The notes under the pieces were generated by a model. That model worked only from the letters and a program-made list of their open reading frames with translations, was not told the origin of the DNA and did not search any database. Both the position numbers and the translations under genes were made by a program. Of a stretch of 64,000 nucleotides of DNA, positions 1-50,429 are shown in pieces. The stretch is from a virus, in the IMG/VR virus record IMGVR_UViG_3300042691_033066, positions 1 to 64,000 of that record. The stretch is one strand, 5' to 3'. Positions within the stretch are counted from its first letter, which is position 1, and every line of letters begins with the position of its first letter.

Positions 1-50
1 GAAGACTGTGGTAATCAAGTAATTAAAACTTAAAAAAATGGAGGTCTAGT

Positions 51-107
51 ATGTGTGGATGTAATCATTGTAATTGCGTAGTTTCCACCATTAACGTAAC
101 TGACTAA
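51..107 (+). CDS. 18-aa Cys-rich small peptide MCGCNHCNCVVSTINVTD (not in ORF track)
   Basis: GGAGG at 40-44, ATG at 51, TAA at 105-107; four Cys in the first 9 codons. Confidence 0.45.
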   Translation: MCGCNHCNCVVSTINVTD

Positions 108-135
108 CAAGGGGGTGATCCTTAACAGTTACGTT
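93..135 (+). promoter_or_regulatory. RNA hairpin carrying an extended Shine-Dalgarno-like sequence
   Basis: AACGTAACTG (93-102) pairs perfectly with CAGTTACGTT (126-135) and encloses AAGGGGGTGATCC (109-121). Confidence 0.5.
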
Positions 136-167: not shown

Positions 168-204
168 GCACGACTAGGGAGCACACGTTCTCTAGTCGTG
201 TTTC
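168..204 (+). terminator. Intrinsic terminator-like hairpin
   Basis: GCACGACTAGGGAGC-acac-GTTCTCTAGTCGTGT stem (with G-U pairs), followed by only a short T tract. Confidence 0.55.
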
Positions 205-217
205 GCTTGAGACAACT

Positions 218-1201
218 ATGAATACAAAAAAATCATTGATCACCATTACCTCGTTCACCGCAACATTTGTCGCACTCTGTGCCGCAGTGTTTTCAGTGAC
301 GGGTATTGCCAAACTGTTCGCAGGTGCTGCATTAAGTGCAGGTATCATGGCAGCAGCGCTGGAATTAGGAAAGATTGTGAGTATATCTTTCTTATATCAA
401 TACTGGAAAGAAATCCCAAAAACTCTTAAATACTATTTGTCGGTTGCTGCGATAATATTAATGGTTATTACGTCCGCGGGTATCTACGGGTACCTCTCAT
501 CTGCCTACGCTAAGGTCGCTAGCACCCCATTAGCGTTGAGTGCAGACATCCAAACAGTCCAAGGACGGGTGGGTAGTTTGGAACAAGACATCAAACGAAA
601 AGAGGACCGGCTTAATCAATTAATAACACTACGATCTCAGCAAGAAACTCGTTTGGATAATATGGTATCTAAATCCACCACAGGAAATAGTGCTACCATT
701 CGTTCGGCACAAAGTGCATTAACTGCGGCGGATAAAAATGTTACGGATCTACAAAAAGAAATAACCAACCTTTCAGCCCAGAGGGATAGTCTCAATGGAA
801 TCAGTATTAGCAAACGTGTGGAAATTGAAACAAACGGTGATATCGGAACTTTCGTCTATATTGCGAAAGTATTGGGCACTGACCTTGATACGGTGGTCAA
901 ATGGTTCACGTTCGTCATTGTATTAGTATTTGATCCACTTGCAGTAGCTCTCGTAGTTGCGGTCAATTTTCTTATAAAAAATAAAGATACCGTAGATCCA
1001 AGGGAAGAAAAAAAATATGAAATATATCCCGATGAACCGATGATATATCAAGAAGAACTTCCTACTGAATCGGAAATGATAGAAACTTCTACTATAGATA
1101 ATTTTACCGATGTAAACTTTGATTGGAATAATAAAGAGTTGTGGGAAAACAATCCCAATGCAGTTTTATATTATAATACTCGTGTAAATTCACGAATATG
1201 A
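218..1201 (+). CDS. Multi-pass membrane protein with central coiled coil
   Basis: Three N-terminal hydrophobic segments, a heptad-rich middle and a C-terminal hydrophobic segment (WFTFVIVLVFDPLAVALVV). Confidence 0.7.
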   Translation: MNTKKSLITITSFTATFVALCAAVFSVTGIAKLFAGAALSAGIMAAALELGKIVSISFLYQYWKEIPKTLKYYLSVAAIILMVITSAGIYGYLSSAYAKVASTPLALSADIQTVQGRVGSLEQDIKRKEDRLNQLITLRSQQETRLDNMVSKSTTGNSATIRSAQSALTAADKNVTDLQKEITNLSAQRDSLNGISISKRVEIETNGDIGTFVYIAKVLGTDLDTVVKWFTFVIVLVFDPLAVALVVAVNFLIKNKDTVDPREEKKYEIYPDEPMIYQEELPTESEMIETSTIDNFTDVNFDWNNKELWENNPNAVLYYNTRVNSRI

Positions 1202-2787: not shown

Positions 2788-3801
2788 ATGAAAATTTATA
2801 CAGCACTCACGTATGATGATATTTCACTACTGCCACAATACAGTGAGATTGAAAGCCGTCAAAAAATTGACCTAACAACTCAATTGACTAATAATTATAA
2901 TATTAGGGTACCGTTGATTGCTTCCCCAATGGATACGGTGTGCGACGGGTTTATGGCAGTTGCTATGGCACAGTTGGGCGGTGTGGGATGCATCCATAGA
3001 TTTATGCCGATTGAGCCACAAGCTCATGAAGTTAAAATGGTTCGTCGTGAAATAACGGATACAACGATACCAGTTATGGCAGCTATTGGAGCAAACGGAG
3101 ATTATTTAGAACGAGCACAAGAGTTGACAAACGCAGGTGCTAATATTATCTTAATTGATGTCGCACATGGACATCACGTTTTTGTTCGTGATGCAATTGA
3201 TAATTTAAAGAAAAATCTACCGTCACACGTAGATATTATTGCTGGAAACGTTGCGACTGCACAAGGCGCAATGGATCTTGAAGATTGGGGAGCAGATGCA
3301 ATTCGGGTTGGTATTGGAGGTGGGTCACTCTGCACGACCAGAATGAAAACAGGTTTCGGGGTTCCTAACGTTACGTCATTAGAACAGTGTGCCAACGCCG
3401 TATCTGTTCCAGTTATCGCATGCGGTGGTATCCGAAACAGTGGAGACATTGCAAAAGCACTAGCAGTTGGAGCAAGTTCGGTTATTCTGGGGTCACTTCT
3501 TGCTGGAACGAAGGAAACGCCTGGTTCAATCATTGAAAAACTAGACGGGTTATACAAGAGATATCGTGGGGCGGCTTCCTTAGAAACGAAGACGGTTCAT
3601 GGTCAAGCAACCCGAAACGTGGAAGGAGAATCTACGGTCGTCCCGTTTAAGGGTAGTGTTAAATTCGTGGTGGAAGGGCTTTTAGATGGTCTTCGGTCTG
3701 CATTGTCTTATGCCGGAGCGGATTGTCTGTCAAAGTTTACTCCAAATTATGTACAAGTTACTAATGCTGGAATGAATGAGGCTCGTCCACACCTTTTGTG
3801 A
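2788..3801 (+). CDS. IMP dehydrogenase / GMP reductase family protein without CBS domains
   Basis: LTYDDISLLP, SPMDTV, GCIHRF, IDVAHGH, AGNVAT, catalytic loop VGIGGGSLCTTR, GGIRNSGDIAKALA, YRG. Confidence 0.9.
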   Translation: MKIYTALTYDDISLLPQYSEIESRQKIDLTTQLTNNYNIRVPLIASPMDTVCDGFMAVAMAQLGGVGCIHRFMPIEPQAHEVKMVRREITDTTIPVMAAIGANGDYLERAQELTNAGANIILIDVAHGHHVFVRDAIDNLKKNLPSHVDIIAGNVATAQGAMDLEDWGADAIRVGIGGGSLCTTRMKTGFGVPNVTSLEQCANAVSVPVIACGGIRNSGDIAKALAVGASSVILGSLLAGTKETPGSIIEKLDGLYKRYRGAASLETKTVHGQATRNVEGESTVVPFKGSVKFVVEGLLDGLRSALSYAGADCLSKFTPNYVQVTNAGMNEARPHLL

Positions 3802-49527: not shown

Positions 49528-50214
49528 ATGGGGAAAACATTATTTGTCAGCGATTTTGATGATACCTTGGCACGTACAGATGCCAAGGTAATTCTTGTTC
49601 GGAATGGTGAACGGACGGAAATGGATCCAGCAGCATTTGCCATATATGAACCAGAAAAAGGCGACACATTTGATTTTTCGCAATTTGATAAACTCATCAA
49701 TCCTCGTCCCATCCAACGATTTGTTAAATTATTAAAACAAGCAATTGGACGAGCAGATAAAATTGCCATATTAACTGCCCGAGGTCATACTCGTCCCGTC
49801 GCGCAATTTTTAAAAATGCACGGAATTGACGCCGGAGTGTCTATCGCAGCAATAGGTAGCGCAGACCCAGAAAAGAAAGCAAGTTATATCCGTAAACATA
49901 TTCAAGCTGGATTTGATAGAGTTGCATTTATTGACGACTCTCCGAAAAATATTGCAGCAGTTGAACGACTACGAACAGAATTTCCTAAAGCAAAGATTTT
50001 AGCACATCAAGCAAAAGAAGAAGAGGAACATCCAACTGATGAACCCAAATCGGCCAACAAGCCTACATTAGATTCACCAGAAATGAGTGCTATTGCTCAA
50101 CAAGCAAAGCAAATGGGATTGACTGATTTTAGGTTTGGTCGGTATGGAAAAGATGGAAAGGTTACACATATTATTAAAAACGGACGATTGGTTCCGAAAC
50201 CCAAGGGGGCATAA
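49528..50214 (+). CDS. HAD-superfamily phosphatase (PNKP-phosphatase-like)
   Basis: DFDDTL (motif I), ILTAR (II), KK (III), FIDDSPKN (IV). Confidence 0.8.
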   Translation: MGKTLFVSDFDDTLARTDAKVILVRNGERTEMDPAAFAIYEPEKGDTFDFSQFDKLINPRPIQRFVKLLKQAIGRADKIAILTARGHTRPVAQFLKMHGIDAGVSIAAIGSADPEKKASYIRKHIQAGFDRVAFIDDSPKNIAAVERLRTEFPKAKILAHQAKEEEEHPTDEPKSANKPTLDSPEMSAIAQQAKQMGLTDFRFGRYGKDGKVTHIIKNGRLVPKPKGA

Positions 50215-50429
50215 TGCACGTAAAGGTTAATGAAGGAAAAGATGATTTGAACAAAGCATTGAAGCAGTTTACAAAAATGGTTAAGAAGTCGGAGATCATG
50301 CAGGAACTACGTAACCGAGAGCACTTTTTAAAGCCATCAAAGAAACGTATTTTCAAACGTCAAGAAGCACTTCGTCGTAGAAAACGTGAAGAACGAAGAG
50401 CAGCAAGACAAAAACATTACGATAATTGA
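50214..50429 (+). CDS. rpsU: Phage-encoded 30S ribosomal protein bS21
   Basis: VKV..DLNKALKQFTKMVKKSEIMQELRNREHFLKPSKKR..RRR; 71 aa. Confidence 0.88.
   Translation: MHVKVNEGKDDLNKALKQFTKMVKKSEIMQELRNREHFLKPSKKRIFKRQEALRRRKREERRAARQKHYDN

Follow-up and report, generated by a model that had tools for sequence, protein, structure and literature searches.

What does a sequence that is well suited to pair with the 3′ tail of 16S rRNA do in an RNA that offers no start codon behind it? The question is raised by a locus at the beginning of the viral contig IMGVR_UViG_3300042691_033066, the first 64 kb of which (64,000 nucleotides (nt), hereafter the window) were analysed. Right behind an 18-codon short open reading frame (sORF), the transcript is predicted to form a hairpin whose loop displays a 13-nt complement of the 16S rRNA tail, that is, a Shine–Dalgarno (SD)-like sequence. 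A comparison across related large phages from freshwater makes it likely that this loop is selected for pairing with the 16S tail, the anti-SD, and that it does so without starting translation.

In the window, the hairpin is built on the plus strand from the 5′ arm AACGTAACTG (93–102) and the 3′ arm CAGTTACGTT (126–135), which pair perfectly over 10 bp and enclose a loop of 23 nt (103–125; 17–39 nt in relatives). The loop contains the complement AAGGGGGTGATCC (109–121), which begins 1 nt past the sORF stop codon and includes the conserved core GGRGGUGAUY (111–120), referred to below as the 10-mer. A first-pass annotation of the window, made from its letters, had pointed out both the stem and the position of the complement, and coordinates, strand and pairing are all borne out. 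Folded by itself, the hairpin reaches −14 kcal/mol (z = −2.8), which 0 of 200 shuffles equal, and the fold of the region 30–220 has a z of −4.0; the exact pattern AAGGRGGTGATCC occurs a single time in the 64-kb window and in 0 of 100 shuffles. The hairpin with its 16S-tail complement is thus real and far beyond chance. The annotation had also suggested that the motif is partly paired with TCCTT. This inner helix, AAGGG/CCUU, is predicted for the window, but relatives keep at most 2 bp of it, and it was rejected as a conserved feature. Rfam gives no match at gathering score across the 64 kb and none with E ≤ 1 across positions 1–260.

The complement stands apart from the initiation signals of the same phage. 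No other 16S-tail complement in the 74-kb contig is as long, the next on the plus strand being 10 nt and located inside a gene, and its predicted duplex with the canonical tail GAUCACCUCC amounts to −24.1 kcal/mol. For the SDs that precede 44 real genes of the same phage, duplexes of −6 to −11.8 kcal/mol with the 16S tail are predicted, in line with the earlier remark that the complement is much longer than the SDs at real starts in the window.

Relatives were collected by way of a neighbouring protein, blind to the motif. The 327-amino-acid (aa) protein encoded downstream of the hairpin led to 22 loci among viral contigs, and a profile of this protein led to 79 loci, 77 of which were analysed. 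The pattern GG[AG]GGTG[AG]T[CT] is found upstream of the membrane-protein gene in 70 of the 77; the other seven hold nothing within two mismatches in the context of the cassette, as we call the hairpin with its flanking signals. No decayed copy is thus seen: a locus has the element in full or lacks it altogether. A further search, keyed to the sORF start alone, recovered the same family in viral and metagenome contigs; a loose scan for GGTGATC..GTTAYGT..GGAG gave mostly chance hits among the matches listed and was used only after a stem filter. The family holds 46 distinct cassettes with 38–42 distinct hairpins. Its stems measure 7–12 bp, the 5′ arm corresponding to the last codons of a short ORF, and its loops start at or near the stop codon and contain the 10-mer. 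A covariance model of the element (R1) matches this contig exactly once (62 bits), as it does a 167-kb relative (89% complete) and another of 146 kb, and has no match in the Flavobacterium phage immuto and the Microcystis phage Mel-JY01.

The first-pass annotation had proposed looking among relatives for covariation of the stem and conservation of the motif, and both are found. In a 42-sequence alignment, 82% of the stem cells pair, compared with 27–32% when the partners are slid by 1–3 columns. Changes on both sides occur at 6 of the 12 stem pairs (for example AU in 25 and GC in 14 sequences, or CG in 21 and UA in 12), and 0 of 500 shuffles reach the observed covariation score. On the opposite strand, several G·U pairs of the stem (such as ACAUAGCCGAU and UAACGUAGCU) would turn into A/C mismatches; added to the strand of the sORF and of the U tracts at the terminator, this establishes the plus-strand RNA as the functional form. 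A minus-strand reading, in which the element would mimic the 16S tail, was rejected on the same three grounds and because the changes in the loop are neutral only on the plus strand.

The variation within the loop points to the partner of the 10-mer. Positions 1, 2, 4, 5, 6, 7 and 9 are invariant in the 46 distinct cassettes, and all positions opposite A or C of the tail, where a neutral change is impossible, are among them. The remaining positions 3 (A in 38, G in 8), 8 (A in 44, G in 2) and 10 (C in 41, U in 5) face U1537, U1532 and G1530 of the canonical tail, so that every substitution retains a G·U pair. The flanks favour pairing as well: 43 of 46 cassettes have A or G at position −1, which pairs with U1540, and 41 of 46 have C or U at position +1, which pairs with G1529. 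A cis-encoded anti-SD adjoining the cassette was rejected, since 60 of the 70 loci hold no CACCYCC within the fetched sequence (~1–2 kb either side of the motif), and a CsrA-type GGA site was rejected because the GGA itself varies (8 of 46 cassettes have G at position 3).

The absence of a start codon at SD spacing, noted earlier for the window, extends to the family. In the window no ATG, GTG or TTG follows the motif at this distance; the sole nearby GTG (115–117) lies inside the motif and opens a frame of 2 codons (M-I-stop) to 20 codons in relatives. Across the family, ATG, GTG and TTG are absent 3–13 nt past GGRGG in 45 of 46 distinct cassettes, and a near-cognate codon 4–12 nt past GGRGG is absent in 18 of 46; an ATC that appears in one clade is a piece of the 3′ arm and opens frames of 4–14 codons. 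About half of the variants do contain an ATG, situated in the 3′ arm ~15 nt from the GGRGG core. It alternates with ACG as the partner of a covarying A/G in the 5′ arm, and is for this reason not a conserved start. The frames behind the motif range from 1 to 20 codons and none is conserved, on which account read-through and a second ORF were rejected. Judged by these comparisons, the motif is not an initiation site.

The hairpin is bound to the end of an ORF. The sORF of the window (51–107, plus strand; ATG at 51, TAA at 105–107) encodes the Cys-rich peptide MCGCNHCNCVVSTINVTD, and its final codons form the 5′ arm. Its own SD, GGAGGT (40–45), lies 5 nt 5′ of the ATG, is invariant in close cassettes and forms a predicted 16S-tail duplex of −10.5 kcal/mol. 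The main-clade sORFs encode 35 distinct peptides of 16–26 aa with 4–9 Cys in CxC patterns, and their use of both synonymous Cys codons (TGT/TGC 139/60) marks the sORF as translated sequence. In distant lineages the peptide is unrelated and not Cys-rich; in others, a mini-ORF of just 1–3 codons with no SD abuts the motif, the credible ORF ending 22–27 nt upstream. In L324 and L321 this credible ORF is hsp20, whose stop codon falls within the 5′ arm. The conserved trait is an ORF that ends at the hairpin, not a given peptide. In all 48 cassettes with an ATG-initiated frame closing there, of which those in L321, L324 and L332 are not credible ORFs, the stop codon lies −1 to +4 nt from the 10-mer (mode 3), and in some cassettes it overlaps the complement (UAGGAGG.., UAAGGGGG..).

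Some further features of the sORFs and hairpins deserve mention. The Cys-rich peptides, such as MCGCNHCNCGCSTINVTD and a 26-residue form with nine Cys, show CxC/CxxC patterns, end in [N/H][I/V]T (window 51–107 and sORFs in L262–L330) and resemble mini-metallothioneins, by composition only. By impression rather than count, the stop is usually followed by C (UAAC or UGAC) in the window (105–108) and in the cassettes seen. A stop followed by C is a poor termination context in E. coli; if the same applied here, it would fit slow release at the sORF stop. In the distant lineage of L324 (1049–1125) and, at the same place, L321, the loop segment GUUGAGAU directly before the SD-like motif has a complement, AUCUCAAC, immediately behind the hairpin, which makes a pseudoknot possible.

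In the relatives compared, the cassette is made up of five parts: an SD with a mini-ORF, the hairpin, the loop GGRGGUGAUY after the stop, an orphan GGAG and an intrinsic terminator. Upstream of it, the window starts with the 3′ end of an Hsp20-like gene (hsp20; 1–22, plus strand; ..KTVVIK, stop TAA at 20–22), which is cut by the contig start; relatives end in ..LHITIPRKVQTKENKAKTVVIK and the stop at the equivalent place. Since no hairpin lies between the hsp20 end and the sORF, the two are probably co-transcribed. Past the hairpin, all on the plus strand, follow a pyrimidine motif AACCCTT (144–150), AACCTT-like in most lineages and with no consistent pairing partner in the alignment and the folds of relatives; the second orphan GGAG (159–162), which has no start codon, lies 5–16 nt 5′ of the terminator stem and is kept in most lineages; and a terminator-like hairpin with TTTCGCTT (169–208), folded as a 14-bp stem (169–182/187–200) with the loop ACAC. 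A simple terminator scanner made no call at 169–208 in the window. In relatives, this place is taken by a GC-rich hairpin and a U tract, the latter longer than in the window; the position is conserved, the sequence is lineage-specific, and the terminator sequences differ among lineages without matching upstream changes. Antiterminator pairing of the 3′ arm or the linker with the terminator was rejected, as none is conserved in the folds of 13 variants.

The gene of the 327-aa protein (218–1201, plus strand), a predicted membrane/coiled-coil protein with no match in a Pfam search, begins 9 nt past the 8-nt T-rich tract and 17 nt past the terminator stem. In the distant relative L331, which has no cassette, the hsp20 stop and the membrane-protein start are ~10 nt apart; this, and the short distance from the terminator stem to the next ATG in the window, indicates that the cassette is operon-internal. 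A promoter scan found none of note, and the 17 nt leave no obvious room for one. The cassette thus resembles an insert that has placed a terminator between two genes transcribed together, and the genes behind it (the membrane protein, UvdE, a glycosyltransferase and a GMP-reductase-like protein) would then depend on read-through. The cassette also travels alone: it follows hsp20 with no membrane-protein gene in L034/L037, precedes that gene with no hsp20 in L018–20 and L049, and has an extra gene inserted behind it in L056.

A few lineages carry additional signals around the cassette. Upstream of position 1201 in L326 and L328, an SD/anti-SD duplex (GAGGGAGGC / GCCUCCCUC) forms the terminator stem, and the sORF carries a conserved anti-SD-like ACUCCUUCCC; competition between SD-like and anti-SD-like segments of one RNA would thus be possible. 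In L056 (~1330–1384), UCACCCCCUAU and AUAGGGGGUGA form a 13-bp hairpin past the cassette, which locks the SD of the gene that follows, with its ATG 5 nt further on, and has TATTTATGG in its loop. In L050 (~345–365), TATTTATA lies ~75 nt upstream of the hsp20 start; if this were a late promoter, hsp20 and the cassette would belong to late transcripts.

How might such a cassette work? Our preferred reading, to which we give a probability of roughly 0.45, is that the 16S tail docks at the hairpin without initiation, and that this docking is coupled to the translation of the short ORF that ends there. The coupling is suggested by the ORF stop being locked to the motif and by the last codons of the ORF being the 5′ arm. 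A ribosome completing the mini-ORF would melt the stem and leave the motif single-stranded a few nt ahead; the released ribosome, or a free small (30S) subunit, would then be caught through a 10–13-bp helix with its anti-SD tail and, with no start codon within reach, would be parked on the untranslated spacer. It has been reported that an SD near a stop codon alters the release of post-termination complexes from the mRNA, the SD lying upstream of the stop in that work (PMC5737721). Parked beside the terminator or at the orphan GGAG, a ribosome would mask the terminator's 5′ arm and could thereby control the downstream genes. Terminator control that gates these genes is our favoured guess for the output, with protection of the transcript as an alternative. 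The first-pass annotation had likewise envisaged a 30S-binding element used for something other than initiation. Its non-initiating character and the selection for tail pairing stand, with the motif in 70 of 70 cassette loci and changes that are neutral by wobble, whereas ribosome capture is a step that such pairing would allow.

Several points weigh against docking coupled to translation. A helix of 10–13 bp inside a closed hairpin loop of 17–27 nt is sterically awkward. In three distant lineages the credible upstream ORF ends ~22–27 nt before the motif, the adjacent mini-ORFs having no SD, so that strict adjacency of the stop is not universal. With regard to the output, one lineage (L034/L037) retains the cassette with no co-directional gene behind it, and no alternative pairing that would link the hairpin and the terminator is conserved among the 13 folded variants. 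The sole clue to the host, a GMP-reductase-like gene discussed below, leads to an order whose tail, GGAAUACCUCC, would form an A/A mismatch with the loop and a duplex of −17.4 kcal/mol. Finally, we know of no system in which a downstream SD that has no start codon has been demonstrated to capture a ribosome after termination.

The identity of the phage and its host bears on these readings. The window belongs to a linear IMG/VR contig of 74,076 bp with 38.9% G+C, estimated by CheckV to be ~38% complete; it has no terminal repeat and breaks off within a gene, which marks the record as a fragment. At this end (74053–74076) the contig runs 8 codons into a gene starting MGLFEKAI.. that is preceded by an AAGGAG SD. 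The contig encodes a gp23-type capsid and a gp20-type portal protein and represents a distant T4-like myovirus. By its capsid protein it is nearest to the Flavobacterium phage immuto (54.5%), followed by the Microcystis phage Mel-JY01 (49.5%), so that the nearest cultured phage infects Flavobacterium. The first 3 kb of the window have no DNA similarity match among cultured phages, and a search for tRNA and tmRNA genes found none. The cyanophage markers psbA/psbD are absent from this phage and its relatives; they are likewise absent from the Microcystis phage, which makes them uninformative. GGAG-type SDs precede ~40% of the genes of this phage, mostly structural ones, and none of the genes of immuto.

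The one gene that hints at a host encodes a protein of the GMP-reductase/IMPDH family (2788–3801), which shares 63–71% identity with chromosomal genes of Chitinophagaceae/Bacteroidota (in metagenome-assembled genomes), the next best match being 41%; it looks like an exchange with Bacteroidota. The 16S ends in sampled Chitinophagaceae genomes read GGAAUACCUCCUU in 24 of 24 cases, as do nearly all of ~150 hits in 128 sampled Chitinophagales genomes. The Chitinophagales tail is thus GGAAUACCUCCUUUU instead of GGAUCACCUCC (L090, L095–L123, G001–G354); four CTGGATCACCTCCTT hits in these genomes were rejected, as they are neither 16S ends nor rRNA. Cyanobacteria and most other phyla have the canonical 16S tail. 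The tail of Flavobacterium is canonical as well (PMC7797042 numbering). Given the perfect fit of the loop, the mismatch with Chitinophagales, and the A/G exchange at position 8, which is neutral only against U, the host is predicted to have the canonical tail GAUCACCUCC, and this prediction argues against the Chitinophagales host suggested by the GMP-reductase-like gene. In Chitinophagales genomes, the leader of rpsU, the gene for ribosomal protein bS21, contains AAAGGAGGUAU, which matches the tail variant of this order over 11 nt, so that the 16S tail and the extended SD of rpsU co-vary. This agrees with the report that Bacteroidia keep one extended SD, on rpsU (PMC9976891).

The phage itself encodes a bS21 of 71 aa (50214–50429; Pfam 50 bits), as the first-pass annotation had pointed out in view of its contact with the SD/anti-SD helix. 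The gene, which has its own SD, AAGGGGG, 5 nt before the ATG, is indeed present 50 kb from the cassette; the link to the element fails. Cassette and bS21 occur together in this contig and in G356 and are both missing from immuto, but the 89%-complete relative G355 has the cassette and no bS21 that could be found, and Mel-JY01 has bS21 and no cassette, so that co-occurrence was rejected for the records searched. The C-terminal part of the phage bS21 is very basic (KKRIFKRQEALRRRKREERRAARQKHYDN) and position 54 is Arg, not Tyr; bS21 of Chitinophagaceae has Tyr at position 54 and a less basic tail. In Bacteroidetes, the Tyr54 signature of bS21 has been tied to sequestration of the anti-SD (PMC7797042).

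These properties of bS21 invite readings in which the element acts on the ribosome pool. In one of them, the cassette gives rise to a small transcript with an rpsU-like extended SD and two ordinary SDs that acts in trans as a decoy or trap for 30S subunits with a free anti-SD; if the host belonged to the Bacteroidia, this transcript would compete with the rpsU mRNA, the sole host message with an extended SD, and favour take-over by the phage bS21. The display of the motif in a loop, the missing start codon and the presence of three SD-like sites in ~170 nt speak for such a decoy, as do a strength equal to that of rpsU extended SDs, which capture ribosomes without tRNA (PMC9976891), and the basic C-terminal part and missing Tyr54 of the phage bS21, against the Tyr and less basic tail of the Chitinophagaceae protein. 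A Flavobacterium-infecting phage is the nearest cultured relative, and bS21-encoding myoviruses reportedly infect mainly Bacteroidia (PMC9723584, PMC9976891). We nevertheless consider a decoy unlikely: it leaves the locking of the ORF stop to the motif and the coding 5′ arm unexplained, cassette and bS21 do not strictly co-occur, there is a single copy per genome, and a Bacteroidia host is unproven, the best-matching order having a non-matching tail. Still less probable is a related proposal, in which the phage reads or manipulates the state of the anti-SD and captures ribosomes with a free tail, for example after exchange of host for phage bS21. If true, capture would open the operon-internal terminator once the ribosomes had been remodelled, or starve the autoregulatory loop of host rpsU.

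Other explanations do not involve bS21 at all. The lack of a start codon behind an SD-like sequence is the defining trait of the stabiliser SD (STAB-SD), and a ribosome sitting on the orphan SD or SDs could shield the hsp20/sORF transcript, or the read-through transcript, from ribonucleases. This hallmark, the very strong pairing and a site just upstream of the 3′ terminator hairpin fit the idea, which is doubtful all the same: known stabilisers act near the 5′ end against 5′-to-3′ decay, here the site is 3′ of the ORFs to be protected and is separated from the downstream gene by the terminator, and the 10–13-nt length, the display in a loop and the coupling to the stop are left unexplained. 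It is improbable that the loop serves a partner other than 16S rRNA, be it an RNA-binding protein of phage or host or another RNA, with the SD likeness incidental or secondary. An invariant 10-mer in a hairpin loop does also resemble a protein operator, and the change of C10 to U would equally retain an intraloop pair with G2. The changes A3>G and A8>G have no intramolecular partner, however, and are neutral only against U in the tail; positions −1 and +1 also favour pairing with U1540 and G1529 (43 and 41 of 46), an exact 13-nt match is not expected by chance, and 60 of 70 fetched loci offer no partner in cis. Least probable is a cryptic ribosome-binding site that would serve initiation at a non-canonical codon, reinitiation after the sORF to make a micropeptide, or bypassing of the T4 gene 60 kind. 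A stop followed by an SD is the geometry of genes coupled in translation, an ATG is found in the 3′ arm of roughly every second variant, and the phage is T4-like; yet this ATG lies ~15 nt from GGRGG and alternates with ACG as a stem partner, 45 of 46 cassettes have no ATG, GTG or TTG at 3–13 nt and 18 of 46 not even a near-cognate codon, the frames are unconserved and 1–16 codons long, and a by-eye check of the sequences found no matching landing codon with a continuing frame.

The element shares traits with a number of known systems and coincides with none of them. With a canonical ribosome-binding site it has in common the complementarity to the 16S tail, here over 13 nt; it differs by having no start codon ~4–12 nt downstream and no conserved frame. 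Closer in strength is the extended SD of Bacteroidia rpsU, which serves autoregulation by bS21, is predicted to pair at −14 to −21 kcal/mol and forms stable, tRNA-independent ribosome complexes (McNutt et al. 2023, PMC9976891). Both pair with the tail over 9–13 consecutive nt, are of the same energy class (−24 kcal/mol here, with the canonical tail) and are essentially unique in their genome. The rpsU element, however, precedes a start codon and is translated, extends towards the rRNA 3′ end (AAAGGAGGU..) and is found neither in a loop nor after a stop; the phage element has no start codon, extends the other way (..GGUGAUC) and lies outside the initiation region of bS21. Like the STAB-SDs of Bacillus (cry3A and others), it is an SD-like sequence outside initiation to which a ribosome would bind. 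STAB-SDs are 7–9 nt long, lie near the 5′ end, where they block 5′-to-3′ decay, and are not tied to a stop codon or a loop, whereas the phage element lies 3′ of hsp20 and the sORF and before a terminator.

Leader-peptide attenuators come to mind because of the short ORF with its own SD, the hairpin over its end and the intrinsic terminator before the downstream genes, and also because the main-clade peptide is rich in one amino acid (4–9 Cys), which does not hold for the distant lineages. In the systems summarised in PMC5737721, SD-like sequences near leader stop codons lie upstream of the stop. In the phage cassette the SD-like sequence lies downstream of the stop, and no conserved antiterminator pairing was found among the 13 folded variants. 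A motif that adjoins a stop and is complementary to rRNA could also retain the post-termination small subunit in the manner of reinitiation tethers. Such tethers, for example the calicivirus termination upstream ribosome-binding site (TURBS), which pairs with 18S rRNA, serve a restart codon a few nt away; the phage element has no restart codon or ORF to serve. In T4 gene 60, ribosomes bypass from a stop atop a stem-loop of the last codons, with an SD-like element in the untranslated gap. The present phage is T4-like and combines a stop at a stem-loop of the last codons with an SD-like element, but matched take-off and landing codons and a resuming frame are lacking: the only downstream GAC of the window (171–173) is followed by TAG, and in relatives the take-off codon varies without a matching landing codon. 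Ribosome entrapment at rpsO by S15 is a repressor-dependent block of a real start, in which the SD is paired and the folded mRNA is held outside the decoding channel. The combination of SD/anti-SD pairing with a folded RNA is similar; the phage element has no start codon and no known protein.

Non-initiating roles of SD-like sequences are already known from stabiliser SDs, frameshift stimulators and the gap element of gene 60. The phage element is set apart from these by its 10–13-nt match, its display in a loop, its position right after a stop and its placement before an internal terminator. While SD/anti-SD pairing is usually treated as a start signal, strict, wobble-only selection for it is seen here in at least 46 phage variants that have no start. 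The element measures ~45 nt, is absent from Rfam and could become a new RNA family, and it provides a prediction of the host 16S tail (GAUCACCUCC) from sequence only. If ribosomes are indeed held at these loops, they would represent a natural viral use of rRNA pairing beyond initiation, for tethering, sensing or sequestering ribosomes.

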